Below, piece after piece: positions 1 through 21,585 of a DNA stretch of 32,000 nucleotides. Origin of the DNA: an archaeon GW2011_AR10. GTDB taxonomy: Archaea > Iainarchaeota > Iainarchaeia > Iainarchaeales > GW2011-AR10. The first letter of the stretch is position 1, and each line of letters begins with the position of its first letter. The position numbers were made by a program, and so were the translations under genes. Under the pieces are notes generated by a model. It was not told the DNA's origin and searched no databases. It saw only the letters and a list, made by a program, of their open reading frames with translations. The stretch covers positions 480,001 to 512,000 of the forward strand of contig CP010424.1 in the NCBI GenBank assembly GCA_000830275.1, read 5' to 3'.

Positions 1-3
1 TGT

Positions 4-408: not shown

Positions 409-413
409 AATTA

Positions 414-4648: not shown

Positions 4649-4657
4649 CGTGGTTTT

Positions 4658-5071: not shown

Positions 5072-5340
5072 AATTCCCTGTAGATGTTGACAAACATGTA
5101 ACCGAAGCAGACGAAAACAACAACACAGCTTCAATCACAATCACAGTCTCCTAAAAAAAATCAACTTTCCAGTTGAATTCCAATCAACCCAACATATATT
5201 AATTCAGCAACCGCCAATATGAATGGAGAGAAACGATTTGGACTAATTTCTACATAACATAATTATAAAAAGTTTATTAATAAGAAAGTTATTAATAGTA
5301 GTAGAAGTAGTAGTTTATTAGTATTCAATTGTGATCCAAA

Positions 5341-5490
5341 ATGTTCACAAAAACCAAAGCAATTGAAAGGCCTTATTCCGAGGCTGAGCTTAAGGGGCTT
5401 GAAAAGGTTTTTGCAGAACTTAGGAAGGCTGGTCATAGCCCTAGTGTGAAAGCTTACCTTAGAAAGAGGAAAGCAGAATTAAAGGCTTAA
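5341..5490 (+). CDS. Small protein (49 aa), member 1 of a local three-member family
   Basis: Hand-translated: MFTKTKAIERPYSEAELKGLEKVFAELRKAGHSPSVKAYLRKRKAELKA. It shares MFTKT and ERPYS.A.L with the ORFs at 6403 and 6234. Its 3' end overlaps the convergent PIN gene by 12 nt. It is below the ORF-track length cutoff. Confidence 0.45.
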   Translation: MFTKTKAIERPYSEAELKGLEKVFAELRKAGHSPSVKAYLRKRKAELKA

Positions 5491-5964
5491 TTCGTTGAGT
5501 CTAATGAATCTCGGGGTATTCAACCCATTTTTTTCGTTGACCTTGTTGTAGGCCCTTAGACATGGTTTTGATTTCATTGTCCTGTCATCCTCAGAAACAA
5601 TGATATCAAGAGTGTGGATTGTTGCTGTTGCTACAATAAGAAAATCGGGCATAATTTTTCTCTTAGGAACCCCACCTTTATACTCTTTCCAGTATTCCTC
5701 TGCAAGAACATCGACGACCCTTTCAATTGGAAAGGAATGGTCTTTGACCAAACCATCATAAACTTGAAGAAGCAGGTTTCTGAAGCTCTTCCCATCATAT
5801 TTAACGCTTGGAGGAATATCCCTAAATTCATCCCTTATTATTTTACAACCATAAACAACAAGATTGCCCTTCTTGACGAGAGCCTTAACTTTAGAAAAAC
5901 CATTTTTCAAAAGAAACTCATAAGTGTTAGTGTCCAACATTACCCTTAACTGGCCACCCTGCAT
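5479..5964 (-). CDS. PIN-domain protein (VapC-like ribonuclease), paralog 1
   Basis: Acidic PIN tetrad context: MLDTN, IRDEF, DFLIVATA and IVSEDD. I place the start at ATG 5964 (MQGGQLRV...), not at the track start 6003. Confidence 0.8.
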   Translation of the reverse strand: MQGGQLRVMLDTNTYEFLLKNGFSKVKALVKKGNLVVYGCKIIRDEFRDIPPSVKYDGKSFRNLLLQVYDGLVKDHSFPIERVVDVLAEEYWKEYKGGVPKRKIMPDFLIVATATIHTLDIIVSEDDRTMKSKPCLRAYNKVNEKNGLNTPRFIRLNELSL

Positions 5965-5974
5965 GATAATTCTT

Positions 5975-6007
5975 GTGAAAAGAAAAGAATAAAAGACAGG
6001 CATTAAA
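5975..6007 (-). promoter_or_regulatory. Conserved 33-nt element upstream of PIN paralog 1 (minus-strand TTTAATGCCTGTCTTTTATTCTTTTCTTTTCAC)
   Basis: Identical 33-mer at 7058-7090. In both copies it lies exactly 10 nt upstream of the PIN ATG. The TTTAAT box sits about 40 nt upstream of the ATG, consistent with an archaeal TATA promoter and a short leader. Confidence 0.45.
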
Positions 6008-6102
6008 TAAACCGCCTAACAATCATCTGACATCAGGAAGGTTACTGCTTCTGCATTGGCAACAACCCAAACGCGGCCTTTTACTATTATTCCTTTCCTG
6101 AT

Positions 6103-6143
6103 TTCTGCGAACAAGTATTGCATTGTTTTTTAAAGGCTTTTTT
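6103..6143. promoter_or_regulatory. Repeated intergenic motif, copy 1 (ttctgcgaacaagtattgcattgTTTTTTAAAGGcttttt)
   Basis: 41 nt identical to 7124-7164, and the 25-nt core is identical to 9480-9504. It contains a TATA-like TTTTTTAAAGG. Confidence 0.45.
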
Positions 6144-6233
6144 CGAATTTATAAATAGGAAACCAAAAATTTTATATAGAAAAAGAGAGAATAATTATGT
6201 TATTTCACAATAAGGGAAAGAGAAGCGATTGGA

Positions 6234-6398
6234 ATGTATTCAAAATCTGAGACTGTTGAAAGACCTTATTCCAAGGCGGATTTAGCCAAAGCTAGAAAGT
6301 TGGTTGCAGATATTAGGGAAGCCAAAAAAGACCCAGAAGTTATTAAAGCAGCAAAAGAATTCTACAAATACCATACTGGTAAAAATTTTAAGGTGTGA
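6234..6398 (+). CDS. Small protein (54 aa), family member 2
   Basis: Hand-translated: MYSKSETVERPYSKADLAKARKLVADIREAKKDPEVIKAAKEFYKYHTGKNFKV. It shares ERPYS with member 1 and AKKDP...EF..YHTG with member 3. Confidence 0.45.
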   Translation: MYSKSETVERPYSKADLAKARKLVADIREAKKDPEVIKAAKEFYKYHTGKNFKV

Positions 6399-6402: not shown

Positions 6403-6570
6403 ATGTTTACAAAAACAATTGAAAAGCCGAAAAGCCCGGCATCTGCTAAAACTTCAAATAGACACCATTCCAGCAAAGATTTCTGGAATAAAGTCCATAT
6501 GGCAAAAAAAGACCCTAATTTCAGGGCTTTCATTAAGGAATTCGTTGCCTATCATACGGGTTCAAAGTAG
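6403..6570 (+). CDS. Small protein (55 aa), family member 3
   Basis: Internal ATG of track ORF 6304..6570: MFTKTIEKPKSPASAKTSNRHHSSKDFWNKVHMAKKDPNFRAFIKEFVAYHTGSK. It starts 4 nt after the stop of member 2. Its 3' end overlaps the convergent PIN gene by 9 nt. Confidence 0.45.
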   Translation: MFTKTIEKPKSPASAKTSNRHHSSKDFWNKVHMAKKDPNFRAFIKEFVAYHTGSK

Positions 6571-7047
6571 TTTCCAGAATTTTTCAATAGAAAAGAAAGC
6601 GGGCTCCCGCAACTGGTTTCTTGCATTTACAGCAGTATAGGCTTTTACAGCGGGCCTGGAAATCATGGAATCGTTGTCTTCTGAAACAATGATGTCCAAA
6701 TCATGTATGCTAGAACAAGCGACTATAAGAAAGTCATTCCACATTTTCCTTTTTGATATTCCGCCCCCATATTCCCGCCAATACTGCTCTGCAATATTCT
6801 CAATGACCGGACTCAAGTAGTAGTCTTTTTTCACAACCCGGTCATAAGCGCCTAACAGGAGACCCCTGAAGTTCCTATTTCCATACTTCAGCTTTTTCGA
6901 AGTGTCTCTTAGCTCTTTCCTCACTACATCAAAACCATAAATTGTTACTTTGGTTGTTTCTTCGGCCTTCTTCAGGATAGACTCATCTTTTTCAAAGAAG
7001 AGCCCGTAAATGTTTGTGTCTAGGATTATGCGAAATCGCTTTTCCAT
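6562..7047 (-). CDS. PIN-domain protein (VapC-like ribonuclease), paralog 2
   Basis: ILDTN, VRKEL, DFLIVACS and IVSEDN motifs. I place the start at ATG 7047 (MEKRFRIILDTN). Confidence 0.8.
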   Translation of the reverse strand: MEKRFRIILDTNIYGLFFEKDESILKKAEETTKVTIYGFDVVRKELRDTSKKLKYGNRNFRGLLLGAYDRVVKKDYYLSPVIENIAEQYWREYGGGISKRKMWNDFLIVACSSIHDLDIIVSEDNDSMISRPAVKAYTAVNARNQLREPAFFSIEKFWKLL

Positions 7048-7057
7048 GACAAAACTA

Positions 7058-7090
7058 GTGAAAAGAAAAGAATAAAAGACAGGCATTAAA
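7058..7090 (-). promoter_or_regulatory. Conserved 33-nt element upstream of PIN paralog 2
   Basis: Identical to 5975-6007, with the same 10-nt spacing to the ATG. Confidence 0.45.
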
Positions 7091-7123
7091 AATCGCCTCT
7101 TTTTGTTTTCTCATTTCCTCTAC

Positions 7124-7164
7124 TTCTGCGAACAAGTATTGCATTGTTTTTTAAAGGCTTTTTT
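7124..7164. promoter_or_regulatory. Repeated intergenic motif, copy 2
   Basis: Identical to 6103-6143. The TATA-like box lies about 55 nt upstream of the GTG start at 7207. Confidence 0.45.
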
Positions 7165-7206
7165 TGAGTTGTTAATTATTAAAACTCGTTTTTGAGAATG
7201 GTTTAA

Positions 7207-8325
7207 GTGAGCAAAAAAATTCTTGTAACAGGAGGCGCGGGATTCATTGGCAGTCACCTCGTTGATGGATTAGTAAAAGAAGGGCATGAGGTGAGAGTCC
7301 TGGACAATTTGGACAAGCAGGTGCATGTCAGCGGGAAAAAGCCGGATTTTCTAAACAAGAAAGCCGAATTCGTGCAGGGGGATGTGAGGAACAAGGAAAA
7401 CATTGCAAAGGCGCTTGAAGGAGTTGAAGCGGTTTTCCATTTTGCTTCAACAGTCGGAGTAGGGCAAAGCATGTACGAAATTAATTATTATGTTGATACA
7501 AACAACGGTGGAACTGCTAACTTAATGGAGTGGATTGTGAACAAGGAAAATGAAGTGAAAAAAATAATTGTTGCAGCATCCATGAGTTCTTACGGGGAAG
7601 GCTTATACAAATGCGAAAAATGCGGGTTGGTGGAACCAGAAATAAGGGGCACGGAACAACTGAATAAAAAAAAATGGGAGCTGCTGTGCAAAACCTGCGG
7701 TTCAGTGTTAAGGCCTGTGCCAACTCCTGAAAGCAAAACACAGCACTGCAACAGCATTTACGCTTTAACAAAAAAAGACCAGGAGGAAATGGTTTTGATG
7801 CTTGGAAAAGCCTACGGGATTCCAAGCGTTGCACTGCGATTCTTCAACGTTTACGGTACAAGGCAGCAGTTAAGCAACCCCTACACTGGCGTTGCAGCAA
7901 TTTTCATGAGCAGAATAATGAACAAACAGCAGCCGGTTGTTTACGAGGACGGAATGCAGACACGCGATTTTATTTCAGTGCATGATGTTGTTGAGGCAAA
8001 CATTCTTGCACTTAATTCAAAAAAAGCAGATTACGGGGCTTTCAATGTGGGAAGCGGGAAGGCCTATTCAATCAAAGGAGTAGCTGAAACAATTGCGAAA
8101 GCTTACGGCTCAAACATTAAGCCAAAGGTATTGAACACTTTCAGGAAAGGGGATGTAAGGCACTGCTATGCTGATACAAGCAAGATAAGGAGAGCTCTTG
8201 GCTTTGAGCCAAAAGTTTCGTTAGAGCAAGGAATGAAAGAACTCATAAATTGGAGCAGGGGCGTTAAAGCGCAGGACAATTTTGAAAAAGCAAAAGGCGA
8301 GCTTCAAAAGCGCGGATTAATCTGA
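7207..8325 (+). CDS. NAD-dependent sugar epimerase/dehydratase (extended SDR) with a Cys4 insertion
   Basis: GGAGFIGSHL Rossmann motif and a YALTK (YxxxK) catalytic pair. CEKC...CKTC is inserted between the catalytic Ser region and the Tyr. GTG start. Confidence 0.85.
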   Translation: MSKKILVTGGAGFIGSHLVDGLVKEGHEVRVLDNLDKQVHVSGKKPDFLNKKAEFVQGDVRNKENIAKALEGVEAVFHFASTVGVGQSMYEINYYVDTNNGGTANLMEWIVNKENEVKKIIVAASMSSYGEGLYKCEKCGLVEPEIRGTEQLNKKKWELLCKTCGSVLRPVPTPESKTQHCNSIYALTKKDQEEMVLMLGKAYGIPSVALRFFNVYGTRQQLSNPYTGVAAIFMSRIMNKQQPVVYEDGMQTRDFISVHDVVEANILALNSKKADYGAFNVGSGKAYSIKGVAETIAKAYGSNIKPKVLNTFRKGDVRHCYADTSKIRRALGFEPKVSLEQGMKELINWSRGVKAQDNFEKAKGELQKRGLI

Positions 8326-8341
8326 TTTTTCGGCGAGAACA

Positions 8342-9460
8342 ATGAAAATATTCTACATAACAAGTGTGTTGGGTGACAGTGGAGGAAGCGAAATTTATGC
8401 GCGCGATTTGCTCCTAGAACTGCAGAGGCGCGGCCACGAGCTCTGCGTTTATTCAACGGAGCACTATGAGCTGAAAGGCGTAAAAATGGTTTTTGCTCCA
8501 AGCGCTGGGCACCACGCGTTCAGAAAATTTTTTGGGGTGCTGAGTTACTTTAAGGCATTGAAGGCAGCGCAGGAATTCAAGCCGGATTTGGTGCAAAGCC
8601 ACAGCAATTCAATGATGGGGCTTATAGGGCATTTTTTGAAAAGGAAGCTGAAGGTGCCGCACGTGATGCTGGTTGAATTAATCAGCTCGAGGAATTTGAA
8701 CATTCACACGAAAACTATTTTTGAGCTGGAAAAGTTTTTCCTGCCGAAGCTGAATTACGATAAAATTGTTGTGTGGACAGAGAACATGAAAAAAAACTTT
8801 CTTTTGAAGTGGAATGTTCCTGCAAAAAAAATTGTAGTGCAGCCTGCAGCGGTTAAACTGCGCAATTATCCCTTGAATGTGAGCGGTGAACGCATTAAAA
8901 AAAAATACGGAGAGCATTTGATTACTTCCATCAAAACCCTGTGGGGAACAAATGCTGAAGGGCTGAAGTATGTAATTGAGGCAATGAAGTATGTCAAGGA
9001 AAAGCATCCAGAATACAAGTATGTTGTTTTTGGCGACGGGAATTATCGAAAAATGCTAGAGGAATTTGCGATAGAGAAAGGAGTGAGCGATGTTGTGAAA
9101 TTTGCTGGAGCAATTACCCCGGAACAGGCAAGAGAAGTGTGGGCAGCAACAGAAATTGCCCCACATTCATTTGTTTACGAGTTTTCAACATCAGTTTCCC
9201 TGCTGGAGTACATGGCTGCAGGAAAGGCGTGCGTTGTAACTGATATTGGCAGCGTTCAAGAATTTGTGGGAAATGCAGCGCTTGTTGTTAAGCCGAATGA
9301 TGCAAAAGCAATGGCCGCAGGAATCAACAAACTTATTGAGGATAAAAAAAAGCGCACAGAGCTTGGTGCAAAGGCAAGGAAGCTTGTTGAGGAACGCTAC
9401 TCAATTAAAGCAACTGTTGACAGGCTGGAGCAAATTTATTCGGAGTTGAAAAAGCGCTGA
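8342..9460 (+). CDS. Glycosyltransferase, GT4 family (GT-B fold)
   Basis: N-terminal GDSGGSEIY motif and a C-terminal EX7E-type motif (EFSTSVSLLEYMAAGKACV). Confidence 0.85.
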   Translation: MKIFYITSVLGDSGGSEIYARDLLLELQRRGHELCVYSTEHYELKGVKMVFAPSAGHHAFRKFFGVLSYFKALKAAQEFKPDLVQSHSNSMMGLIGHFLKRKLKVPHVMLVELISSRNLNIHTKTIFELEKFFLPKLNYDKIVVWTENMKKNFLLKWNVPAKKIVVQPAAVKLRNYPLNVSGERIKKKYGEHLITSIKTLWGTNAEGLKYVIEAMKYVKEKHPEYKYVVFGDGNYRKMLEEFAIEKGVSDVVKFAGAITPEQAREVWAATEIAPHSFVYEFSTSVSLLEYMAAGKACVVTDIGSVQEFVGNAALVVKPNDAKAMAAGINKLIEDKKKRTELGAKARKLVEERYSIKATVDRLEQIYSELKKR

Positions 9461-9479
9461 ATTCGATTTTTGCACTAGG

Positions 9480-9504
9480 TTGCATTGTTTTTTAAAGGCT
9501 TTTT
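9480..9504. promoter_or_regulatory. Repeated intergenic motif, copy 3 (25-nt core ttgcattgTTTTTTAAAGGcttttt)
   Basis: Identical core to copies 1 and 2. It lies 20 nt after the GT4 stop, and its TATA-like box is about 36 nt before the rmlB ATG. Confidence 0.45.
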
Positions 9505-9528
9505 CCAGCTTTTTTATGTAAGGGTTTT

Positions 9529-10518
9529 ATGGATAGAGTGCTGGTTACTGGAGGTGCGGGGTTCATTGGCAGCAACTTCATTCGCTACTTGGCGGAAACC
9601 CATCCTGAAACGGAAATCGTGAATTTGGATAAACTGACTTATGCCGGGAACCTGGAAAATTTAAGGGATTTGAAGGGAAACAAAAATTACTCGTTCATTA
9701 AAGGCGACATCTGCGACAAAAAAGTTGTGGCAAAGGCAATGAAGGGCTGTGATGTGGTTGTCAATTTTGCTGCTGAAAGCCATGTGGACAGGAGCATTGA
9801 GGAGCCTGCTTCCTTCATTAAAACAGACGTTTTTGGTGCTTATGTTCTGCTGGAGGAAGCTAGGAAGCAGGATGTGGAGAAGGTTATTCAGATTAGTACT
9901 GATGAAGTATACGGCAGCATTCAGAAAGGTTCCTTCACAGAGGAAAGTGTGCTGAATCCAACTAATCCTTACTCTGCTTCAAAGGCAGGGGCAGACAGGC
10001 TTGCTTTCAGCTATTTTGCAACTTATGGTTTGCCTGTAATTATTACAAGAAGTTCTAATAATTATGGGCCTTATCAGTTTCCTGAAAAAGTCATTCCGCT
10101 TTTCATTACTAACCTTATTCAGGGAAAAAAGGTGCCGCTTTACGGAGATGGCCTGAATGTTAGGGACTGGCTTTATGTGATGGATAACTGCGAGGCAATT
10201 GATTTGGCGCTGAGGAAAGGAAAGAATGGGGAGGTTTACAACATTGGCGGCGGCAGCGAGAAAACAAATCTTGAGTTAACGAGATTTATTTTGAGGGAAA
10301 TTGGAAAAGGAGAAGAAATGATTGAGCACGTTAAGGACAGGTTAGGACATGACAGGCGATACAGCTTAAGCTTTGAAAAAATCGCTTTCCTTGGCTATAA
10401 ACCAAAGAAAACATTTGAAAACAGAATGCGTGAAACAATTCAATGGTACAAGAAAAATAAGAAATGGTGGATTCCGCTACTCAAAAAAGCTGCATTTGAA
10501 AGGAAAAGCGTTTCATAG
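9529..10518 (+). CDS. rfbB: dTDP-glucose 4,6-dehydratase
   Basis: VLVTGGAGFIGSNF, NLDKLTYAGNLENL, AAESHVDRSI, YSASKAGAD and NNYGPYQFPEKVIPL closely match the well-known RmlB sequence pattern. Confidence 0.9.
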   Translation: MDRVLVTGGAGFIGSNFIRYLAETHPETEIVNLDKLTYAGNLENLRDLKGNKNYSFIKGDICDKKVVAKAMKGCDVVVNFAAESHVDRSIEEPASFIKTDVFGAYVLLEEARKQDVEKVIQISTDEVYGSIQKGSFTEESVLNPTNPYSASKAGADRLAFSYFATYGLPVIITRSSNNYGPYQFPEKVIPLFITNLIQGKKVPLYGDGLNVRDWLYVMDNCEAIDLALRKGKNGEVYNIGGGSEKTNLELTRFILREIGKGEEMIEHVKDRLGHDRRYSLSFEKIAFLGYKPKKTFENRMRETIQWYKKNKKWWIPLLKKAAFERKSVS

Positions 10519-10538
10519 GTAAAAAAAGTGAAATTAAA

Positions 10539-10739
10539 ATGAAACTGAAAAAGAAGCATTGGCTAATCCTTTATTTAGTTTTTGTTGGAATTCCAGCAAT
10601 TGTTTTTAGTGGTTCACTTTACTTTTTTGCTACTAGTGATCCTGAATTAGCAATTACAATTGCTCTTGGAGCAGCAGTTGTACTAGTTTTTTTTGTTTGG
10701 TTATTAAAGAACTTTAGAAGCTTATTAAGGGGTTTTTAG
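10539..10739 (+). CDS. Small membrane protein (66 aa, two predicted TM helices)
   Basis: ORF track. There are two hydrophobic stretches. Its stop TAG (10737-10739) overlaps the GTG start of the next gene. Confidence 0.5.
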   Translation: MKLKKKHWLILYLVFVGIPAIVFSGSLYFFATSDPELAITIALGAAVVLVFFVWLLKNFRSLLRGF

Positions 10740-11344
10740 TGGCAAGGAGAAGAAGTCGTCGAGATGATGAATTAGTAGTAGGATTTCTATTTATTTTATA
10801 TTTAATTATATTAATTCTCGCTTTAATTTACTTGGTAATAACTTCTACTATTGCTTGGATTAGCGAAAACTTGCTTTTGGTAATTCTTATAGGAATTCCA
10901 TTAATGTTGATTGTGGCAATAGTTGTTGGAGTTGGTGGCTACTATTTTTTAAAACGTAGAAATGAACGCTCAGAACAACTTTATTATCAAGTTGTTGATG
11001 CAATAAAAGAATTTAAGCCATCCAAAAAATGGTCGCATGAGGAAGGTTATCATGCAGAACTTCAACGTGAGCTGAAAAATCATTTTAAAAATGCAATGGT
11101 AGAAATTCAAAAGGGTTCTTCAAGACCTGATATTGTAATTGATGATATTGCAATAGAAGTTAAAGGGCCAACTGGAGCAAGTGAATTAGAAACCATCCCA
11201 AACAAAGTTATGCGATATGGCCTGCATTTTAGAAAAGCTTTGATTATTGTTTTGTTTGATCTTCGAGCAAGTGACAGATATTATAAGGAGTGGTTAGAAG
11301 CTTTGAAGCGACAGTTTCCAGAAGTGGAGGTAATAAAAAAGTGA
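10739..11344 (+). CDS. Membrane-anchored PD-(D/E)xK nuclease-fold candidate: two N-terminal TM helices plus a ~120-aa soluble domain
   Basis: The TM segments are at about aa 13-36 and 44-70. The C-terminal domain has HEEGYHAEL (helix with an acidic residue), then SRPDIVIDDIAIEVKG, which fits the PD...ExK pattern (D131, E140, K142). Confidence 0.6.
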   Translation: MARRRSRRDDELVVGFLFILYLIILILALIYLVITSTIAWISENLLLVILIGIPLMLIVAIVVGVGGYYFLKRRNERSEQLYYQVVDAIKEFKPSKKWSHEEGYHAELQRELKNHFKNAMVEIQKGSSRPDIVIDDIAIEVKGPTGASELETIPNKVMRYGLHFRKALIIVLFDLRASDRYYKEWLEALKRQFPEVEVIKK

Positions 11345-11420
11345 GAAGAAATAAAATCCATAAAAAATACTGCTTTAAGTAAACTTCAAAAGAAGCTCAA
11401 GAAAAAGGGAGGTGGATAAA

Positions 11421-11597
11421 ATGTATGATCCATTCGGTACAAGGAAAAAAAGAAAATCCGCTGATAGAAGAGCAGGAACAAGAAATGTGCCCCATGTAGG
11501 AAAAGCACCTAGAGCTCGCACAGCAAAAGGAAGCTGGAGGAAAAAAAGAAAAGATGCTGGCAAAAAAAGACGCAGAAAAAGCATTTGGGGATTTTGA
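11421..11597 (+). CDS. Very basic small protein (58 aa, Arg/Lys-rich)
   Basis: ATG at 11421 is preceded by GGGAGGTGGAT (SD-like) 6-7 nt upstream. Sequence: MYDPFGTRKKRKSADRRAGTRNVPHVGKAPRARTAKGSWRKKRKDAGKKRRRKSIWGF. A competing antisense ORF exists. Confidence 0.35.
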   Translation: MYDPFGTRKKRKSADRRAGTRNVPHVGKAPRARTAKGSWRKKRKDAGKKRRRKSIWGF

Positions 11598-11614
11598 AAT
11601 CTGAATTTGAAATC

Positions 11615-12079
11615 TTACTTTTTATATGAATGGTAACTGAGTAGCCCCCATATAAGCCCTAGAAGAGCAGTAACTATAAAATAAGGAAGGACATTCTGCC
11701 TAGATTCATCCCACTTTTTAAAAGTTTCAATCCTATACTCTAGGTCATCTGTATACTTTTTTTCGAAAAAATTTATCTCCCTGTAATCAGCACGCATAAT
11801 TCGTTGGTTTTCTTCATCTGCCAAATTTATGTTCTTTGTAAAAGCAGGACCAAATAAAGTTTCATCTTTAGTCTTAAGGTAAGCATATGCGCTAATCTCT
11901 TTTTCAAATTGTTCGTGTTTGTCTCCAAGTTCATCAATATAATGAGTCAAATCACAATAATATTGGGTATCTTTTACAAATGCGTCTCCAAGTTTTATGA
12001 TATCTTTTGTGCAATAAAACTCTTTCTGAAATTCCAATTCAGTGTAGTCAGCAAGGATGCTCCAAGTATTTTTTTCCAT
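11615..12079 (-). CDS. Hypothetical protein with a C-terminal TM anchor (154 aa)
   Basis: ORF track, ATG start. The body is acidic and soluble, followed by LPYFIVTALLGLIWGLLSY near the C-terminus. Confidence 0.55.
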   Translation of the reverse strand: MEKNTWSILADYTELEFQKEFYCTKDIIKLGDAFVKDTQYYCDLTHYIDELGDKHEQFEKEISAYAYLKTKDETLFGPAFTKNINLADEENQRIMRADYREINFFEKKYTDDLEYRIETFKKWDESRQNVLPYFIVTALLGLIWGLLSYHSYKK

Positions 12080-12096
12080 TAATTTTTGTATATTAA

Positions 12097-12132
12097 AATG
12101 ACGTCCTCCCCTGCCTAAAGGCAGGGGTATCC
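12097..12132. repeat. Conserved hairpin motif, copy B (aatgaGACGTCc-tCCCCTGCC-taaa-GGCAGGGG-tatcc)
   Basis: 8-bp stem (12108-12115 / 12120-12127) with a 4-nt loop. It is enclosed by a 9-nt inverted repeat, atgacgtcc (12098-12106) / ggacgtcat (12144-12152). Confidence 0.5.
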
Positions 12133-12170
12133 CAACATTTAATGGACGTCATGAACCCGTCAACGGAAAA

Positions 12171-12212
12171 GATACCGAGGCCTACAAACCTCGGCTTAAA
12201 AGCCGAGGTATC
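12171..12212. other. Hairpin with two mutually exclusive pairings; it shares the GGTATC 3' tail with the hairpin motif family
   Basis: CCTCGG (12189-12194) can pair either with CCGAGG (12175-12180) upstream or, as CCTCGGC (12189-12195), with GCCGAGG (12202-12208) downstream. GATAC (12171-12175) is complementary to GTATC (12208-12212). Confidence 0.4.
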
Positions 12213-12315
12213 TTTTGGGTTGAATCAAAAGAGCTCTAGGATTAGCTCAATCAAATCCAGAGCAATTAACTGATAGGGAACTCTGGATTCTGGAAGAGTT
12301 TGGAGGTGATTCTTA

Positions 12316-12468
12316 ATGCGAGCTTTGGTTTTGTTCTTTTTTAGCATTGTCTTTTTCCCCACAATATTTCTTCTTGATGCATTTGGTTTTCAAGAAGAAG
12401 CAATTGAGATTTCAACTCATATTGCAGCATTTTTCTCAGGAATGCTGGTTTGGGAGTTGGTGTTATGA
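12316..12468 (+). CDS. Small hydrophobic protein (50 aa)
   Basis: Hand-translated: MRALVLFFFSIVFFPTIFLLDAFGFQEEAIEISTHIAAFFSGMLVWELVL. A strong SD-like GGAGGTGA lies 7 nt upstream of the ATG. Its stop overlaps the ATG at 12465 (ATGA). Confidence 0.4.
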   Translation: MRALVLFFFSIVFFPTIFLLDAFGFQEEAIEISTHIAAFFSGMLVWELVL

Positions 12469-13382
12469 ATTCCGCACCGGAAATGTGGTGTCTGAAAGCC
12501 CATATAACTGCCTCAAAATTCAATAGTACAATGAATGGAGAAAAATATGAAATCACTAAAGAGTATATTGAGAAAGAATATTTTCAGAATGGGCTATCAC
12601 AATATGAAATAGCCAAAAAGGTTGGTTGTTCGCAGACAATTATAAGTGACAGAATGATAAAATTTGGTCTGAAAACAAAAGAAAAAACATGGAAGTTATG
12701 GAAACATATTTACTCGGTCGACGAAACATATTTTGATGAATTGAATGATGAGAATGCTTGGGTCCTAGGATGGCTGGCTAGCGATGGATATGTGATAATT
12801 AGAAATAATTCCCACCTTTTTGGATTAAAACTAGCAGAAAAAGACAAAGAAATAATTTATAAGATTAAAGACCTCTTAAATTTCAATGGCGTTTTATATA
12901 AAGTAAAACAAAAATTGGAAAAAACAGGCAAAGAATACAATCAAATACAGATAAAAATAACCAGCAAGCAAATTGTTAAAAATCTAGAAAAATACGGTGT
13001 TGTACAGAACAAGTCAAAGATAATAAAATTTCCAAAAATTATTGAGGAATTAAACAATGAGTTAATTACAAAAAATTTTATATTAGGAGTATTTGAAGGA
13101 GATGGAAGTGTTCTTTTTGATGAAAAGTATAGTTCACCATGCTTTCAAATTGTCGGGACAAAAGAATTGCTCACAGGCATACAAAAACAATTAATAAAAT
13201 ATTTGGGTATTAGCAAGACAAAATTAACAAAAAACTCATTATTAGGCAACCATTATATGTTAAGATATAGAGGAAGATTCCAAGCAGTCAGGATATTCGA
13301 TTGGCTTTATTTGAACCAAAAACACTATTTAAAAAGAAAATACAGAAAATACATAGATATCAAAAGGAGATTAAGTCTATGA
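12465..13382 (+). CDS. Free-standing double-motif LAGLIDADG homing endonuclease with an N-terminal HTH
   Basis: Two LAGLIDADG-type motifs (VLGWLASDGYV and ILGVFEGDGSV) about 100 aa apart. The HTH-like segment is LSQYEIAKKVGCSQTIISDRM. The start is uncertain: 12465 is favoured by the ATGA coupling, and 12531 is the alternative. Confidence 0.8.
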   Translation: MNSAPEMWCLKAHITASKFNSTMNGEKYEITKEYIEKEYFQNGLSQYEIAKKVGCSQTIISDRMIKFGLKTKEKTWKLWKHIYSVDETYFDELNDENAWVLGWLASDGYVIIRNNSHLFGLKLAEKDKEIIYKIKDLLNFNGVLYKVKQKLEKTGKEYNQIQIKITSKQIVKNLEKYGVVQNKSKIIKFPKIIEELNNELITKNFILGVFEGDGSVLFDEKYSSPCFQIVGTKELLTGIQKQLIKYLGISKTKLTKNSLLGNHYMLRYRGRFQAVRIFDWLYLNQKHYLKRKYRKYIDIKRRLSL

Positions 13383-14104
13383 AAGGAGTTATACTTGCAG
13401 GAGGCCACGGAACCAGGTTGATGCCCCTAACAAAAACTGTCAATAAGCATTTGCTTCCAGTTTACAACAGGCCGATGATTTACTATCCGATTGAAACTTT
13501 AACAAAAGCCGGTATCAAGGAAATCTTGATTGTTACAGGAAGCGATCATGCAGAAGGATTCTCAAAACAGTTAGGTAATGGGAAAGAATTCGGATGCAAT
13601 TTCACTTATGAACTGCAGGACAGTGCAGCAGGAATTGCCGATGCATTAAGGCTTGCAGAGGATTTTGCCGATGGAGAGAAAATAGTTGTAATTTTAGGAG
13701 ACAATATTTTTGAAGATGATATTTCAAAATACGTGAAGGAATTCGAGAAAGGAAATGATGAGGCTGCCATTTTCCTGAAGGAAGTTCCTGATCCACATAG
13801 GTTTGGAGTGCCTGAGCTACAGGGAGAGAAGGTTTTGGGGATTGAGGAAAAGCCAAAGAAGCCCAAATCAAATTTTGCTATTGTTGGTTTGTATATGTAT
13901 GATGAGAAAGTGTTTGACATTATTAAAAATCTGAAGCCATCTGCACGCGGAGAGTATGAAATAACTGATGTGAACAACGCATACCTGAAAAAAGGCAAGA
14001 TGAAAGCAGTGAGATTGAAGGGATTCTGGACAGATGCAGGAACTTTTGAATCCTTGTACAGGGCAGCACAGCTTGTAAAGGAAAAAGAAGACAAGAAAAG
14101 CTGA
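13379..14104 (+). CDS. rfbA: Glucose-1-phosphate thymidylyltransferase (short form)
   Basis: MKGVILAGGHGTRLMPLTKTVNKHLLPVYNRPMIYYPIETL closely follows the RmlA N-terminal consensus. AAGGAG lies 8 nt upstream. The ATG overlaps the endonuclease stop (ATGA). Confidence 0.85.
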   Translation: MKGVILAGGHGTRLMPLTKTVNKHLLPVYNRPMIYYPIETLTKAGIKEILIVTGSDHAEGFSKQLGNGKEFGCNFTYELQDSAAGIADALRLAEDFADGEKIVVILGDNIFEDDISKYVKEFEKGNDEAAIFLKEVPDPHRFGVPELQGEKVLGIEEKPKKPKSNFAIVGLYMYDEKVFDIIKNLKPSARGEYEITDVNNAYLKKGKMKAVRLKGFWTDAGTFESLYRAAQLVKEKEDKKS

Positions 14105-14109
14105 TTCTG

Positions 14110-14979
14110 ATGAACACATCAATTGTTGTAATGACGCATAACAGGAAAAATGTGCTGGAGCAAACCATCAACGGAATGCTGGAACAGGATTTTCAAGGAA
14201 GATTTGAAATAATTGTTGTTAATGACGGCAGCACTGATGGCACCAAACAAATGCTGTGGGAGAAATTCCAAAACAACAAAAAAGTTGTCGTTTTGAACCA
14301 GCATAGGAGCTTTCCGTGCAAGGCAAGAAACAACGGCATACGGAAAGCAAAGTTTGAATTTGTTGTGATAATGGATGATGACTGCATTCCTAGCAGGAAC
14401 TGGCTCAAAAATTTGATTGACGGTTTTAATTCAGAGAAAATCGGGGTTGTGAGTTCTTTTGATTTGTATGGTGGCACTTCAACTGCTTTCAGGAAAAGCG
14501 TTCTGGAAAAAATTGGGGGCTATGACGAGCAGTACCGATATTATCGTGAGGACACTGACTTGGTGTTCAGGGTTTTGGATGCAGGCTATGAGGCAAAACT
14601 GGTTAAGGCAGACTTCACACACGAGCACAAAATGGAGGCACCGAAAGGACTGCTTGGATTGGTTGCTTACGGTTTGGAGAGAGCAGCCTATCACATGAAT
14701 GACGTGCTGCTTTACAAAAAGCACCCAAAGCTCGCAAAAGAGTTTCTTGGGGTGAGATTTGGTTTTCTGGTTTCTCCGGCAAAGGATTTTGCGGCTGCAA
14801 CAAACCAGTGGTTTAAGGGCGGGAAAATGAAGCTGGCTTCACCGCGCGGAATTGTTTTCCTTGAGGGAAAAAATTTTGCGGCAAAAGCACTGATCGTGAT
14901 TGGAGGAATTTCATGGGTTTTCACTGTCAAATTTTTCAGGCTGATTGCAAGCATCAGGTTCTGGAAGCTGCTGGTTTAA
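14110..14979 (+). CDS. Glycosyltransferase, GT2 family
   Basis: IVVMTHNR...IIVVNDGSTDGT and a DDD (DxD-type) motif. Confidence 0.85.
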   Translation: MNTSIVVMTHNRKNVLEQTINGMLEQDFQGRFEIIVVNDGSTDGTKQMLWEKFQNNKKVVVLNQHRSFPCKARNNGIRKAKFEFVVIMDDDCIPSRNWLKNLIDGFNSEKIGVVSSFDLYGGTSTAFRKSVLEKIGGYDEQYRYYREDTDLVFRVLDAGYEAKLVKADFTHEHKMEAPKGLLGLVAYGLERAAYHMNDVLLYKKHPKLAKEFLGVRFGFLVSPAKDFAAATNQWFKGGKMKLASPRGIVFLEGKNFAAKALIVIGGISWVFTVKFFRLIASIRFWKLLV

Positions 14980-15050
14980 GGCCTGTCTTCGGCTATTGTA
15001 CCATGCGGCTTTATTAAAATTATTTGATTGGATTATTTAGTGCTGGTTAA

Positions 15051-15749
15051 ATGAAGACAGTTATTTTGTGCGGTGGGAAAGGCTCTAGGATGGGCGCAAA
15101 AACAGAGAAAATACCGAAGCCGTTGGTGGAGATAGGGGACAAGCCTGTGCTGTGGCATATCATGAAAATCTATGCATCGCAGGGGTTCAATGAGTTTGTG
15201 CTGTGCCTTGGCTACAACGGAGAAAAAATCAAAGCTTATTTTGGGGAAAATAATTCTGAAAAATGGAGCATAGAATTTGTTGATACCGGCTTGGAAAGCT
15301 CGAAAAGCGAGAGAATACAGAAAATAAAAAATTTTGTTGATGGGAAAAATTTTTTTCTTGCTTACGGTGACGATTTATGCAATATTGACCTGAAAAAACT
15401 TTTGGGGCTCCATGAAAAAAGCAAGCGGGTTGCAACAATAACTGCTGTTAGGGTTGAAAGCCCTTTTGGCCTTGTTGAATCAAATGAAAAGGGCGAGGTT
15501 GTAAGGTTCAAGGAAAAACCGAAGCTTAACCACTGGATGAACGGCGGCTACATGGTTTTTAACAAAAAAATTTTTGGTTATCTTGGAGAGGGAGAGCTTG
15601 AAAAAGAGGTTTTTGAAAAACTCGTTAAGGAAAAGCAGTTAATGGCTTTCAGACATGAAGGTGAATGGAAGACAATGAACACCCTCAAGGACAACATTGA
15701 GCTTAACGAACTATGGGAAAACAATAAGGCGTTCTGGAAGGTGTGGTGA
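15051..15749 (+). CDS. rfbF: Glucose-1-phosphate cytidylyltransferase
   Basis: MKTVILCGGKGSRMG...IPKPLVEIGDKPVLWHIMKIYASQGFNEFVLCLGY matches the characteristic RfbF N-terminus. Confidence 0.88.
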   Translation: MKTVILCGGKGSRMGAKTEKIPKPLVEIGDKPVLWHIMKIYASQGFNEFVLCLGYNGEKIKAYFGENNSEKWSIEFVDTGLESSKSERIQKIKNFVDGKNFFLAYGDDLCNIDLKKLLGLHEKSKRVATITAVRVESPFGLVESNEKGEVVRFKEKPKLNHWMNGGYMVFNKKIFGYLGEGELEKEVFEKLVKEKQLMAFRHEGEWKTMNTLKDNIELNELWENNKAFWKVW

Positions 15750-16720
15750 TGGGCTTTTGGAGTGAAAGGAAAGTTTTTGTTACAGGCGCGGATGGCTTTA
15801 TTGGCAGCTGGGTTGCAAAAAAATTGGTTGAGGAAAAGGCAAAAGTTGTTGTTTTGGTGCGGGACCTGAAGCCGGAGCTAGGCTTTGATTTGCAAGGCTT
15901 AAGGAATAAAGTAACGGTTGTGAAAGGAGACTTGGCTGATTTAGGAGTATTGCAGCGCGCACTCAACGAGTACAGTATTGACTCGGTTTTCCACATTGCA
16001 GCGCAGGCAATTGTTGGAACCGCAAACAAGAGCCCGCTTTCAACTTTTGAGTCAAACATCAAGGGAACGTGGAACTTGATGGAGGCATGCAGGCTCCACG
16101 AAGGAGTTGAAAGAATTGTTGTTGCTTCAAGCGACAAAGCATACGGCATCCAGAAAAAGTTGCCTTACACTGAGGAATCACCATTGCTTGGCTGCTATCC
16201 TTATGATGCGTCGAAAGCATGCACTGACATAATTGCGAGAAGCTATCATGCAACTTATGGTTTGCCTGTTGCAGTTACAAGGAACGCAAATACTTATGGA
16301 GGCGCTGATTTAAACTTTTCAAGGATTGTACCTGACGCAATAAGGTGCATTCTCGGGGGAAAAACTTTTGAAATCAGGAGCGATGGCTCACCGGAGAGGG
16401 ACTACATGTATGTGAAGGATGCAGCTGATGCATATGTTTTGCTTGCAGAAAAACTCGGGCGAAATGAGTTGAAGGGGCAGGCATTCAATTTTGGTTCAGG
16501 GAAGCCGGTTAAAGTTGTTGAGTTGTTTGGAAAAATTGCTGTTGCTTGTGGGAAGCCAAATACGAAGCCAAAGGTTCTCGGCACGGCAACCAATGAAATT
16601 GACAGGCAGTACCTTTCAATTGAGAAAGCAAGGAAAGTGCTTGGGTGGAAGCCAGAATTCAGCCTTGAAGAAGGGCTGCAAGAAACAGTGCAGTGGTATA
16701 GGGAGTACTTCAAAAAATAG
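15749..16720 (+). CDS. rfbG: CDP-glucose 4,6-dehydratase-like SDR
   Basis: FW..RKVFVTGADGFIGSW at the N-terminus, FHIAAQ and a YDASK catalytic pair. It lies immediately downstream of rfbF, with the ATG overlapping the rfbF TGA. Confidence 0.7.
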   Translation: MGFWSERKVFVTGADGFIGSWVAKKLVEEKAKVVVLVRDLKPELGFDLQGLRNKVTVVKGDLADLGVLQRALNEYSIDSVFHIAAQAIVGTANKSPLSTFESNIKGTWNLMEACRLHEGVERIVVASSDKAYGIQKKLPYTEESPLLGCYPYDASKACTDIIARSYHATYGLPVAVTRNANTYGGADLNFSRIVPDAIRCILGGKTFEIRSDGSPERDYMYVKDAADAYVLLAEKLGRNELKGQAFNFGSGKPVKVVELFGKIAVACGKPNTKPKVLGTATNEIDRQYLSIEKARKVLGWKPEFSLEEGLQETVQWYREYFKK

Positions 16721-16815
16721 TTCGAGCACTGTTCGATATAGATATTTATATAACTATAATACACTTATAATAAAAAAGCAAGGAAAAGAGAAAGAGAAGC
16801 GAGGAGTTGAAACTG

Positions 16816-18303
16816 ATGAGAGTATTGATGCTTAACCCGCCTTTCCTGCCAAGGTTTTCTCGCACCAGCAGGAGCCCGGCAATTTCAAAGGGCGGCTGCG
16901 TTTATTATCCTATCTGGATGGGTTATGCAACTGGAGTTTTGGAGCAGGCAGGCCATAACGTTAAACTGGTTGACGCAACAGCCGCTTCCCTGAACCACGA
17001 GCAAGTGTATGAGCAGGCTGAAAGCTTTTCACCGAAAATGATTGTTGTTGACACGGTTACTGCTTCATACAACAATGACATTAGGGTTGCAGAGCACTTG
17101 AAGGAACAGTTTCCTGAATCGTTCATTGTAATGGTCGGGGACATGGTCACAACAATGCCTGAGGAAACCCTCAAAAAAACTGATTCGGTTGATGCAGTTG
17201 CAAGAGGAGAATATGATTTCACTTTAAGGGATTTGGCAGCGCAGCTTGGCAATGGTAAAAGGATTGAAAAAGTTGAGGGCTTGAGCTGGGTTGACAGGAG
17301 CAGTGGAGAAAAAAAAGTTGTCCACAACGCCGAAAGGCAGTCGATTCAAGGAGAAGAGCTTGACAAGATGCCATTTGTAAGCGATGTTTATTCAAGGCAC
17401 TTAAACATTGAGGACTACTTTTACCCAAGCGTCCTTTATCCAGAGGTCACAATTATTACCGGCAGGGGCTGCTATTACAGGTGCACTTTCTGCAAGTGGC
17501 CGCAAACCCTTACAGGGCATTTGTACAGGGCAAGAAGCATCCAGAACGTTGCTGATGAATTCGAGTGGATTCAGGATAACCTGCCCCAAGTCAAGGACAT
17601 AATGGTTGAGGATGATACTCTCACACAGGACAGGAAGAGGACAGCAGAGTTATGCGGCGAGCTTGTCAGCAGAAAGACAAAGATTGCTTGGACGTGCAAT
17701 GCAAGGGCAGACTTGGATTATGACACAATGCATAAAATGAAGCAGGCTGGGTGCAGACTAATGTGTGTGGGCTTTGAGTCAGGCGTACAACAGATTCTTG
17801 ACAACATCAGGAAGGGAACAAAAATTGATAAAATAAAGGAGTTTATGAATGATTCAAAGAAAGCTGACTTGCTTGTTCACGGCTGCTTTATGATGGGAAA
17901 CAAGGGGGAGACAAAAGAAACAATCAAGAAAACTGTTGAGTTTGCTAAAGAGCTTGATCCTGATACAGCACAATTTTTTCCGATAATGGTTTATCCTGGC
18001 ACTGAAGCTTACCGCTGGGCGGAAGAAAACGGTTATTTGACTACAACAAACTGGGATGAATGGCTGTTGCCTGATGGAACGCACAACACAATAATTTCTA
18101 CTCCTAGCCTGAACTCTGGAGAGCTTGTAAGGGAATGCGATCGTGCGAGAATTAGCTTTTATTTGCGCCCAAAGTTTATGACAAGGAAACTGAAGCAGGT
18201 TATAATGAACCCAAAGGACATTCCCAGGACTTTTATTTCAACCCTTGTTTTTGCAAAGTACCTTGGCAAGGAAATAAATACAACATTGTTCACAAAAGCT
18301 TAA
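16816..18303 (+). CDS. B12-binding-domain radical SAM enzyme
   Basis: The CYYRCTFC (CxxxCxxC) cluster is preceded by a ~200-aa N-terminal domain of the B12-binding radical SAM type (RVLMLNPPF...). GAGGAG lies upstream of the ATG at 16816. Confidence 0.85.
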   Translation: MRVLMLNPPFLPRFSRTSRSPAISKGGCVYYPIWMGYATGVLEQAGHNVKLVDATAASLNHEQVYEQAESFSPKMIVVDTVTASYNNDIRVAEHLKEQFPESFIVMVGDMVTTMPEETLKKTDSVDAVARGEYDFTLRDLAAQLGNGKRIEKVEGLSWVDRSSGEKKVVHNAERQSIQGEELDKMPFVSDVYSRHLNIEDYFYPSVLYPEVTIITGRGCYYRCTFCKWPQTLTGHLYRARSIQNVADEFEWIQDNLPQVKDIMVEDDTLTQDRKRTAELCGELVSRKTKIAWTCNARADLDYDTMHKMKQAGCRLMCVGFESGVQQILDNIRKGTKIDKIKEFMNDSKKADLLVHGCFMMGNKGETKETIKKTVEFAKELDPDTAQFFPIMVYPGTEAYRWAEENGYLTTTNWDEWLLPDGTHNTIISTPSLNSGELVRECDRARISFYLRPKFMTRKLKQVIMNPKDIPRTFISTLVFAKYLGKEINTTLFTKA

Positions 18304-18340
18304 AGCTTCATATTTAATTTTGCCGGATGCCGGTGGTTGA

Positions 18341-19306
18341 ATGAAGGTCAGCGTAATCATCCCTGCGTTCAATTCTTCTTCAACGATTTCTTCATGCATT
18401 GAATCAGTGCTGAAGCAGGGCTTCAAGGATTTTGAAATCATAGTTGTAAATGACGGCAGCACTGATGAAACAGAAAAAATTGTGAAAAAGTTTTCCGGGG
18501 TTAGGCTTTTATCGCAGGAAAACAGGGGGCCTGCTGCTGCAAGGAACCTTGGAGCAAGCAAGGCAAAAGGAGAAATTGTGGCATTCATTGATGCTGACTG
18601 CATTGCATCAGAAGACTGGCTGGATGAGGTTGTGAAAACGTTTGAGGACAAGGAAGTTGCAGGGGTGCAGGGCTCATACAAGTGCAACCAAAAGGAGCTG
18701 ATTGCAAGGTTTATTCAGGTTGAAATTGAGAACCGCTACAAAAAAATGCTGAAGGCAAGCAAACTTGACTGGATTGGAAGCTATTCGGCTGCTTACAGGA
18801 GGGAAGTCTTTTTAAGAGAGGCAGGCTATGACGAGAAATTCAGGAAGGCATCCGGAGAAGATCCAGAGTTAAGTTTTAAACTTTCAAAGAAAGGATACAA
18901 GCTTGTTTTTAACCAGAAGGCAGTTGTTTACCATTCCCATCCAACGGCGCTGTGGAAATACTTGAAGTCAAAGTTCCAGCACGCTTTCTGGAGAGTAAGG
19001 CTTTACAGCAAGCACCGGGAAAAAATAGTGCAGGATTCTTACACTCCGCAGGTGATAAAACTGCAGATTGCAATGTTTTATGTTTTCAGTGCAAGCATTT
19101 TGGGCTTGGCCTTTAGCTCCTTCTTTGTGTGGCCTCTTGCAGTTTCACTTGCCTTGATGTTTTTGAGCTCTCTCCCTTTCTCTTTTGAGGCATTAAGAAA
19201 AGATTTTAGCTTGGGAATTGTTGCTCCGGCAATAGTTTTCCTGCGCTCTGCTGCATTCGGTTTTGGGCTGATTGCAGGAATACTTAATGGAGTTGCGTTA
19301 AAATGA
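18341..19306 (+). CDS. Glycosyltransferase, GT2 family, with C-terminal TM segments
   Basis: VSVIIPAFN...IIVVNDGSTDET and FIDADC, with a hydrophobic C-terminal ~90 aa. Confidence 0.85.
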   Translation: MKVSVIIPAFNSSSTISSCIESVLKQGFKDFEIIVVNDGSTDETEKIVKKFSGVRLLSQENRGPAAARNLGASKAKGEIVAFIDADCIASEDWLDEVVKTFEDKEVAGVQGSYKCNQKELIARFIQVEIENRYKKMLKASKLDWIGSYSAAYRREVFLREAGYDEKFRKASGEDPELSFKLSKKGYKLVFNQKAVVYHSHPTALWKYLKSKFQHAFWRVRLYSKHREKIVQDSYTPQVIKLQIAMFYVFSASILGLAFSSFFVWPLAVSLALMFLSSLPFSFEALRKDFSLGIVAPAIVFLRSAAFGFGLIAGILNGVALK

Positions 19307-21584: not shown

Positions 21585-21585
21585 A

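Follow-up and report, generated by a model that had tools for sequence, protein, structure and literature searches.

Here, we observe that a segment of approximately 2.9 kb in the genome of the groundwater archaeon GW2011_AR10 (Candidatus Iainarchaeum, phylum Diapherotrites, DPANN; Rifle aquifer) probably represents a lineage-specific insertion of selfish DNA at the junction of the sugar genes rmlB and rmlA, which we attribute to a homing endonuclease gene, gene G, at its right end. The segment was studied within a window of 32,000 nucleotides (nt), i.e., positions 480,001 to 512,000 of contig CP010424.1, and positions given without further specification count from the first letter of this window. 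It holds six credible genes, labelled A, B, C, D, F, and G, on which gene callers and manual reading agree (locus tags QT03_C0001G0569 to 0574, A being QT03_C0001G0569; Table 1). An original prediction, made from the sequence alone, had proposed that an AT-rich stretch with seven ORFan genes splits rmlB from rmlA. The insertion itself is borne out by an empty site with the same synteny in three related Diapherotrites lineages, and the coordinates and gene calls of rmlB and rmlA hold according to Pfam.

A search with RmlA returned close relatives at 94, 92, 88, 87, and 74% identity, and the rmlA of the window is 88-95% identical to that of the relatives with an empty site. The cluster order in relatives is GT4 - rmlB - rmlA - GT2 - nucleotidyltransferase - epimerase - B12-radical-SAM gene - GT2 - GT4 (GT2 and GT4 denoting glycosyltransferase families), with no genes between rmlB and rmlA: the gap measures 4 nt in the loci L103, L104, and L105 and 13 nt in L106, and both genes overlap by 4 nt in L109 and L110, two loci from Diapherotrites metagenome-assembled genomes (MAGs). 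The empty junction reads ...CTGAAGAAAGCAGAGGTTAAGAGGTGAAAGCATG, and an example of a sequence that spans it (L103, L106, L107 type) is GCAGAGGTTAAGAGGTGAAAGCATGCGCGGCATAATTCTAGCAGGTGG. The relatives' loci contain no match to any of the six inserted proteins. We thus find a presence/absence polymorphism at a defined site, which is empty in L103 to L110 and occupied by what is left of G in L111. Two of the empty loci, L104 and L105, derive from samples that also hold the AR10 population. A scan of genome contigs with RmlB was useless for the empty-site comparison, because all matches listed show at most 65% identity (Candidate Phyla Radiation (CPR), Methanobrevibacter, Actinomycetes). The usual order at these distant loci, among the matches listed, is rmlA-(rmlC)-rmlB, so that the adjacency of rmlB and rmlA, which had been taken as the normal state, applies to this lineage but not to distant RmlB loci.

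The composition of the segment is in good agreement with a foreign origin. Its G+C content (33.0% for 10519-13378) contrasts with 42.8% upstream (7207-10518) and 43.4% downstream (13379-23373), and none of the 469 other windows of this size in the 32 kb falls as low (mean 0.416, sd 0.025, minimum 0.349). The G+C at third codon positions (GC3) amounts to 0.19-0.31 in the six inserted genes versus 0.38-0.51 in the sugar genes, and the tetranucleotide distance is raised across 10251-14000 (z 1.1-2.6). A compositional break had been predicted from four spot counts (14/60 and 13/60 inside, 25/60 and 24/60 in the flanking genes); the counts are exact, and the break is recovered at full scale (0.330 vs 0.43, together with the raised tetranucleotide distance). 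A second AT-rich, atypical stretch lies at ~2000-6300, just upstream of the glycan cluster, and the insert is therefore not the sole compositional break in the window.

The left edge of the insertion was placed inside the last codons of rmlB, at ~10491-10511, rather than at 10519, where the segment had been predicted to start. Nucleotide homology to L103 and L106 (blastn) ends at 10490 and restarts at 13379-13442, and the last ~9 codons of rmlB (10491-10518) are altered, the protein ending in ...PLLKKAAFERKSVS in the window versus ...PLLKKAEVKR in empty-site alleles. No flanking direct or inverted repeats of note were found around the insert, no tRNA was found at it, and the six inserted proteins have no match to integrase, recombinase, or transposase domains in Pfam, PHROG, and NCBIfam. 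The expectation that the content is not concerned with glycan chemistry held as well: A to G have no match to glycosyltransferase, sugar-modifying, flippase, or polymerase families, nor to other glycan-assembly families, in Pfam and NCBIfam, whereas all flanking genes do match. The seventh predicted open reading frame (ORF), 43 amino acids (aa) in length at 12142-12273, has no gene call listed in the contigs shown and sits within a structured, RNA-like element, which leaves six credible genes.

Gene G encodes a protein with an N-terminal helix-turn-helix (HTH) domain (~residues 38-74) and two LAGLIDADG motifs, WVLGWLASDGYV (residues 99-110) and FILGVFEGDGSV (residues 205-216), with the acidic residue kept in both, as in the monomeric, double-motif type of LAGLIDADG homing endonucleases. 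It matches Pfam LAGLIDADG_3 with 36.3 bits (cut-off 22.5) and phrog_4645, annotated as endonuclease, at 1e-38 over residues 21-304, and the LAGLIDADG gene of the original prediction is thus real. Phage endonucleases show 28-31% identity to the protein, among them the enzyme encoded by an intron in the polymerase gene of Bacillus phage 0305phi8-36, and the matches of G in the PDB are I-HjeMI (1e-4) and I-AniI (8e-4). The gene is free-standing, located between two complete genes and equipped with a start and a stop codon of its own, and is neither intron- nor intein-encoded; a self-splicing intron around G was not detected, as no Rfam group I or II family matched in the window at gathering score or at E<=1. 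The stop of G overlaps the start of rmlA (ATGA), the stop of F overlaps the start of G in the same way (ATGA), and the GGAG Shine-Dalgarno (SD) sequence of rmlA, 8 nt before its ATG, lies in the last codons of G.

A scan of viral contigs with G found nothing, and a metagenome scan returned one locus, L111. Its gene order is rmlB (57% identical to that of the window), a remnant of G directly after it, then rmlA (52%) and a B12-radical-SAM gene. The remnant corresponds to residues 213-305, and shows 68-73% aa identity; the HTH and the first domain are missing, as is the second catalytic motif. On the right-hand side, L111 and the window are collinear across the junction (...AAGAGGAGGCTAAACTTATCAAAGGAATT vs ...AAAAGGAGATTAAGTCTATGAAAGGAGTT), and the remnant is AT-rich compared to its host genes (G+C 0.34 vs 0.42). 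Since sequence similarity is higher for the remnant of G than for the host genes around it, which evolve slowly, a horizontal movement of G between divergent rml operons is indicated. The sequence comparison points to a same-site, independently decayed copy, as in the homing-endonuclease cycle. The recurrence of G at the rmlB|rmlA junction in L111 suggests that G is site-specific for this junction and is most likely the agent of the insertion.

At positions 1540-1545 of L111, a single G-to-C exchange turns the ATGA overlap into ATCA, by which the endonuclease stop and the rmlA start are both lost. Either the rmlA of L111 starts with ATC, or it is a pseudogene, or the exchange is a sequencing error. 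N-terminally extended RmlA homologues were considered as carriers of hidden endonuclease remnants and rejected, as the extensions are mis-called GTG starts or extra upstream residues.

Table 1. Positions of the insert, its genes and structured elements, and the two flanking genes within the window (SD, Shine-Dalgarno; pI, isoelectric point).
Feature	Position	Strand	Description
rmlB	9529..10518	+	dTDP-glucose 4,6-dehydratase type; Pfam GDP_Man_Dehyd 1e-76, Epimerase 5e-68
Inserted segment, ~2.89 kb	10491..13378		33.0% G+C; missing from related genomes
Gene A, 66 aa	10539..10739	+	two hydrophobic helices, pI 10.1
Gene B, 201 aa	10739..11344	+	N-terminal transmembrane helical hairpin (~residues 8-73) and C-terminal alpha/beta domain; GTG start
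Gene C, 58 aa	11421..11597	+	23 K+R, pI 12.0; strong SD GGAGGTG 6 nt upstream
Gene D, 154 aa	11615..12079	-	acidic, tail-anchored: single C-terminal transmembrane helix (129-149); converges on C
HgcC-like structured element	12088..12210	-	Rfam HgcC (RF00062), 23.3 bits; top Rfam match of the window
Pair of overlapping G+C-rich hairpins with a T-run after each	12174..12219		terminator-like on both strands; part of the HgcC-like element
Gene F, 50 aa	12316..12468	+	hydrophobic N-terminus; strong SD GGAGGTGA
Gene G, 305 aa	12465..13382	+	free-standing HTH and double-LAGLIDADG homing endonuclease (Pfam, PHROG, motifs)
rmlA	13379..14104	+	short-form glucose-1-phosphate thymidylyltransferase, intact; Pfam NTP_transferase 1e-65

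Implementing these observations, the following course of events appears plausible. G would cut the uninterrupted junction, probably at a site of ~20 bp across the rmlB stop and the rmlA start, and the break would be repaired from a G-bearing allele, with rmlB and rmlA serving as homology arms, whereby G and the intervening DNA are copied in. The insertion is tolerated because it is intergenic, and since G overlaps rmlA at ATGA and the last codons of G rebuild the SD sequence of rmlA, the translation of rmlA can stay coupled. The genes A, B, C, D, and F would be passengers that accreted beside G or travelled with it. An IS200/IS605 element presumably landed in the same spacer, and its relic (see below) and the other genes would be passengers or later arrivals; after the insertion, the spacer would no longer need to be tight.

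Several points weigh against G as the cause of the insertion. The viral and metagenome scans yielded only one full-length copy and one remnant of the predicted endonuclease. With respect to a co-conversion tract near G, the per-gene identities versus relatives show only that rmlA is the most conserved gene of the cluster, and in binned identities along rmlA versus L111 the 5' end is no closer than controls. In L111, everything to the left of the G remnant is gone. Because this side is deleted, there is no evidence that A to F ever moved with G. Finally, the empty-site relatives are only 60-92% identical at the protein level, too distant for the insertion events to be dated or counted.

A more far-reaching version, which we consider rather unlikely, sees G as the vehicle of the complete 2.9-kb cassette, where the cutting of empty junctions drives B together with A, C, D, and F into the rml operons of other cells. 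If so, a spread even across domains could occur (a contig of bacterial type has an rmlA that is 94% identical), and the cargo would be of benefit to the element or the host, e.g. by keeping competing DNA out at the membrane, and would be carried by a homing endonuclease in place of a transposon or integrase.

Among the genes considered as passengers, B is a member of a widespread, uncharacterised archaeal family, which is membrane-anchored and has a predicted PD-(D/E)xK (restriction-endonuclease-like) nuclease fold, as judged from alignments and structure models. A total of 81 homologues were found at E<=1e-3, in Methanoregula, Methanoculleus (Memar_2016), Geoglobus, Methanosarcinales, Bathyarchaeota, and DPANN, and the ORFan label given to the whole set thus fails for B as well as for G, which is a standard LAGLIDADG enzyme. 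The homologues have in common a C-terminal domain of ~110 aa with ~50% identity, while their variable N-termini are transmembrane helices, zinc ribbons, or coiled coils. The domain carries the signature E101...D131...E140-x-K142 ('GSSRPDIVIDDIAIEVKGPT') within GSSRPDIVIxDIAIEVKGPT; in alignments of 25 and 39 sequences, D131, E140, and K142 are invariant and E101 is conserved in at least 90%. An AlphaFold (AF2) model reached a predicted local distance difference test (pLDDT) value of 93 for the full length and 96 for the domain alone. Its top Foldseek neighbours in the PDB and BFVD are almost without exception PD-(D/E)xK enzymes (CdiA-CT 4g6v, NucS 2vld, XPF, AF1548, OkrAI), among them nuclease domains of giant-virus KilA-N proteins and phage or viral endonucleases. 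These matches have probabilities of 0.92-1.0, yet their E-values in the PDB are at least 0.008 and their template-modelling scores ~0.45-0.66; in BFVD, E-values go down to 8e-5.

With the PD-(D/E)xK superfamily (NucS/EndoMS, XPF/Mus81, AF1548, CdiA-CT(Bp1026b)), B shares the predicted alpha-beta-beta-beta-alpha-beta core and the E...D...ExK residues. This is in good agreement with the membrane-tethered, nuclease-like content of the original prediction. B differs from these enzymes in that its structural matches are weak (E of at least 0.008, template-modelling score ~0.5), in that it has no sequence match among them in Pfam, NCBIfam, or the PDB, and in the attachment of the domain to a transmembrane hairpin (in the homologues also to zinc ribbons or coiled coils). 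No match of B beyond noise was found in Pfam, NCBIfam, or PADLOC, and no meaningful PDB sequence match with the B profile; the family was not found in viral contigs and had no match in plasmids. The gene neighbourhoods of five B homologues have nothing in common and contain no A-, C-, or D-like partner, and the suggested check for co-occurrence elsewhere thus reveals no conserved partner genes. Transposases or an integrase are present in 2 out of 5 of these neighbourhoods.

The remaining inserted genes are small. A and B share 1 nt, the last of the stop codon TAG of A being the first of the GTG start of B. At 90% identity, each of A, C, and F stands alone as a singleton, no search aimed at distant homologues having been made, and C has no match in the family libraries. 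Gene D matched only itself in a search of 5.8 billion proteins, and a full HMMER pass over 1.8 billion representatives yielded two remote relatives (E 6e-14 and 4e-4), both of which carry the D-like domain between transmembrane helices and have two conserved Cys residues.

These genes could also be read as a defence or conflict islet, in which B acts with A and C, and perhaps with D and F, as a module directed against viruses, causing abortive infection, or of the toxin-antitoxin kind, and G is a mere neighbour. Such a function would fit the intact PD-(D/E)xK signature of B joined to two transmembrane helices, the CdiA-CT toxin and the restriction enzymes among its structural neighbours, and the pairs A/B and F/G, each of which combines a small and a larger protein by translational coupling. 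Transposases, an integrase, and groups of small unknown ORFs occur close to some B homologues, and a ParE-like module occupies another junction of the cluster in relatives. However, the six proteins have no match in PADLOC or NCBIfam beyond noise; PADLOC-DB 2.0 gave noise-level matches for A and B (E 0.008-0.07) and none for C, D, F, and G. Moreover, the neighbours of B differ in 5 out of 5 contexts, where no A-, C-, or D-like partner is found, A, C, and F have no counterpart at 90% identity, D has no more than two remote homologues, and no immunity or antitoxin signature was detected. We regard a defence islet as improbable, because it is the fold of B and its membrane anchor that this reading is built on. 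As no integrase, transposase, tRNA, flanking repeat, or PADLOC match was found, the defence-type cargo of the original prediction is unsupported, whereas a horizontal acquisition of selfish DNA is upheld by the foreign composition and the empty site.

The spacer of 236 nt between D and F holds a hairpin cluster. The predicted cluster is real: compared to shuffled sequences, the region 12080-12320 folds far better (z = -6.3 for the (+) strand, z = -5.3 for the (-) strand). A terminator scan gave 9 terminator-like sites in the region scanned versus 1.9 +/- 1.3 expected. In an Rfam scan of the window no family reached its gathering score, and the best match, HgcC, remained below the threshold (23.3 bits, gathering score 50; E 0.003 for a region of 601 nt, 0.16 for the whole window). 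A conserved core of 40 nt (12099-12138, ATGTTGGGATACCCCTGCCTTTAGGCAGGGGAGGACGTCA on the (-) strand) matches plasmid sequences with 84-92% identity (E 2e-4). In Alicyclobacillus p1 this match lies 6 nt past the stop of an annotated tnpB, and in Natrinema pNATPE01 it is a solo copy; both score in the same range as the element of the window (27.3 and 21.3 bits, respectively). HgcC RNAs are transcripts that overlap the 3' end of IS1341-type tnpB genes, i.e., IS200/IS605 right ends, and solo or PATE copies are known, some of which run into a downstream ORF (PMC4615843, PMC4247193). A sigma-70-type promoter scan (11 sites vs 10.8 expected) was discarded as uninformative, and it does not apply to archaea.

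We read the hairpin cluster as a putative solo relic of the right end, or omega RNA, of an IS200/IS605 (IS1341/TnpB-type) element. It is similar to the HgcC family and to PATEs in its size of ~120 nt, its G+C-rich structure in an AT-rich archaeal context, and its layout of two hairpins, and the terminal motif CCCCUGCCUUUAGGCAGGGGAGGAxGUCA is common to the element and to the sequence directly after a tnpB gene. It differs from the family in its low score, in the lack of TnpB and TnpA nearby, and in the lack of a second copy: a tblastn search with a TnpB revealed no remnant in the window, nor was a TnpA found, and neither further copies of the hairpin motifs nor a matching left end occur in the window or in all fetched loci. 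Given the score below the Rfam threshold and the missing transposase, this identity is a matter of sequence and structure similarity, and as no tnpB or tnpA is adjacent, the element is at best a solo relic or a PATE-like piece. The right end of the relic stops 19 nt before the ATG of D (12079-12099 on the (-) strand) in the same orientation, and D has no SD sequence. D may be transcribed from the relic. This arrangement resembles Thermococcus, where solo, transposase-less HgcC copies lead into a downstream ORF and the RNA of HgcC4 forms the 5' region of a hypothetical gene.

The relic brings up a generic flexible-genome insertion, brought about either by recombination of the illegitimate kind or in an IS200/IS605-type (TnpA/TnpB) event, in which G would be one non-causal passenger. 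In its favour, a right-end or omega-RNA-like piece is indeed present inside the block, glycan clusters are known hot spots of gene flux, a different small insertion occurs at another junction in relatives, and accessory AT-rich DNA occurs once more in the window, at 2000-6300. Yet the relic is internal and not at the block boundary, neither remnants of TnpA or TnpB nor a matching left end or another copy turned up, and an independent remnant of G at the exact same junction in L111 would be unexpected for a random passenger. We hold this explanation to be a little less credible still than a defence islet, and continue to prefer G as the agent.

Within the AR10 population, the insert is present base for base in every examined contig that spans it (several independent assemblies), and 19 out of 19 contigs carrying B have it; the variation of the insert comprises just two single-nucleotide polymorphisms (SNPs), both synonymous. 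Apparent strain variants in L003 (48 nt missing in the hairpins, 62 nt missing at the rmlA end), as well as ~93 extra nt in the rmlA of L002 and L012, were rejected as N-gap scaffolding artefacts. A 32-nt loss was seen in L009. N-gap joins are found in public contigs and MAG scaffolds of the population at ~12690-12785 of L002 and L012 and at ~11380 and ~13267 of L003, and in one N-gap contig a foreign high-GC rmlA fragment is spliced into rmlA, resulting in spurious gene calls of 230-236 aa that have no Pfam match. An ancestral segment that was deleted in the relatives, or an assembly chimera, is very unlikely: only a handful of related loci could be examined and some public contigs do contain scaffolding artefacts, but the tight rmlB-rmlA junction with an intact SD and stop arrangement occurs in three lineages of different depth (RmlA 88-92% and 74% identity), the segment is compositionally foreign, and it is present in all examined spanning contigs, B, D, and RmlA being carried by a contig record of 1.24 Mb.

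The genes rmlB and rmlA are set in a long, co-directional surface-glycan cluster, together with epimerases, GT2 and GT4 glycosyltransferases, a second nucleotidyltransferase, a B12-radical-SAM enzyme, an asparagine synthase, and a flippase. A reductase of the RmlD type (RmlD_sub_bind 3e-56) is encoded 13 kb downstream at 27343-28245 (-), on the strand opposite to the cluster. An rmlC was not noticed among the scanned ORFs of the window, no search having been aimed at it, and the dTDP-sugar made here may for this reason not be rhamnose. The SNPs among contigs of the AR10 population are patchy upstream of the insert (7250-10380), with patches in an epimerase (8271-8307), a GT4 (8851-9058), and rmlB (10131-10377), which suggests recombination with diverged alleles or strain-chimeric assemblies. 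In or near the AT-rich stretch at ~2000-6300, two tandem paralogous genes at 5479-6003 (-) and 6562-7086 (-) encode proteins of 174 aa each with 44% identity. PIN-like motifs (LDTN..., DFLIVA..., DIIVSED) were judged by eye, and no Pfam match was obtained at 1e-5; a conserved sequence of ~85 nt (78% identical) lies upstream of each gene (6078-6162 and 7099-7183).

Another small insertion was observed in L103 (15793-16650) and L104 (14427-15284), between the B12-radical-SAM gene and the next GT2. It consists of ORFs of 60 and 129 aa and a ParE-toxin-like ORF of 90 aa, and in the window the same two flanking genes are 37 nt apart. Intergenic junctions of the glycan cluster seem to collect small selfish modules repeatedly. 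Locus L107 (ENA ERZ28563803 scaffold_121910, 1-3382) comprises the 3' end of rmlB and an rmlA whose product is 94-95% identical to that of AR10. Downstream of these come genes for a class-II aminoacyl-tRNA synthetase and for a GreA transcript-cleavage factor of bacterial type. The rmlB end of L107 belongs to the L103/L106 type (83% nt identity), and its rmlA is closest to that of the window (87% nt identity). L107 is either the product of a very recent rmlA transfer from an archaeon to a bacterium (CPR?) or a chimeric contig.

Free-standing LAGLIDADG genes are also found in the alternative glycosylation clusters of Haloferax, for which the authors proposed an endonuclease-initiated gene conversion through which parts of the island can be moved (Shalev et al. 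2018, Genes 9:172, PMC5867893). Like G, they reside in an archaeal chromosome, outside of introns and inteins, and inside a low-GC, horizontally exchanged protein-glycosylation cluster. In contrast, the Haloferax genes belong to LAGLIDADG_2 (pfam03161) and to Halobacteria, whereas G is of the LAGLIDADG_3 type with an N-terminal HTH and resides in a DPANN archaeon of the Diapherotrites, for which we show both the exact empty site and a decayed copy at the same position. A model for G is provided by the intronless homing of the free-standing endonucleases SegF/SegG and MobE in T4-like phages (Belle et al. 2002, as cited in PMC5867893). An endonuclease gene there likewise lies between two conserved neighbours, is present or absent among relatives, and is expected to cut the endonuclease-less allele and to spread by repair together with flanking DNA. 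The Seg and Mob enzymes are of the GIY-YIG or HNH type and act in phage co-infection, while G is a LAGLIDADG protein in a cellular archaeal chromosome, and no marker exclusion or co-conversion tract could be shown for it.

From a biological point of view, the situation is not categorically new. It differs from precedent by the archaeal phylum, the LAGLIDADG subfamily, the three states of the site, and a cargo that includes a nuclease-fold family and an IS200/IS605 relic. The cellular chromosome of this DPANN archaeon provides a clean natural case of a LAGLIDADG homing endonuclease gene that is free-standing, and as the filled, empty, and decayed states of the same site are in hand, the recognition site is directly testable with the junctions of L103, L106, and L107. 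The locus further draws attention to a widespread, uncharacterised family of membrane-anchored archaeal proteins with a predicted PD-(D/E)xK fold, of which B is a member, and to HgcC-like relics of IS200/IS605 ends that would also occur outside hyperthermophiles and halophiles. Together with the Haloferax case, it suggests that homing endonucleases in archaeal surface-glycan clusters may promote gene conversion and the diversification of glycans.

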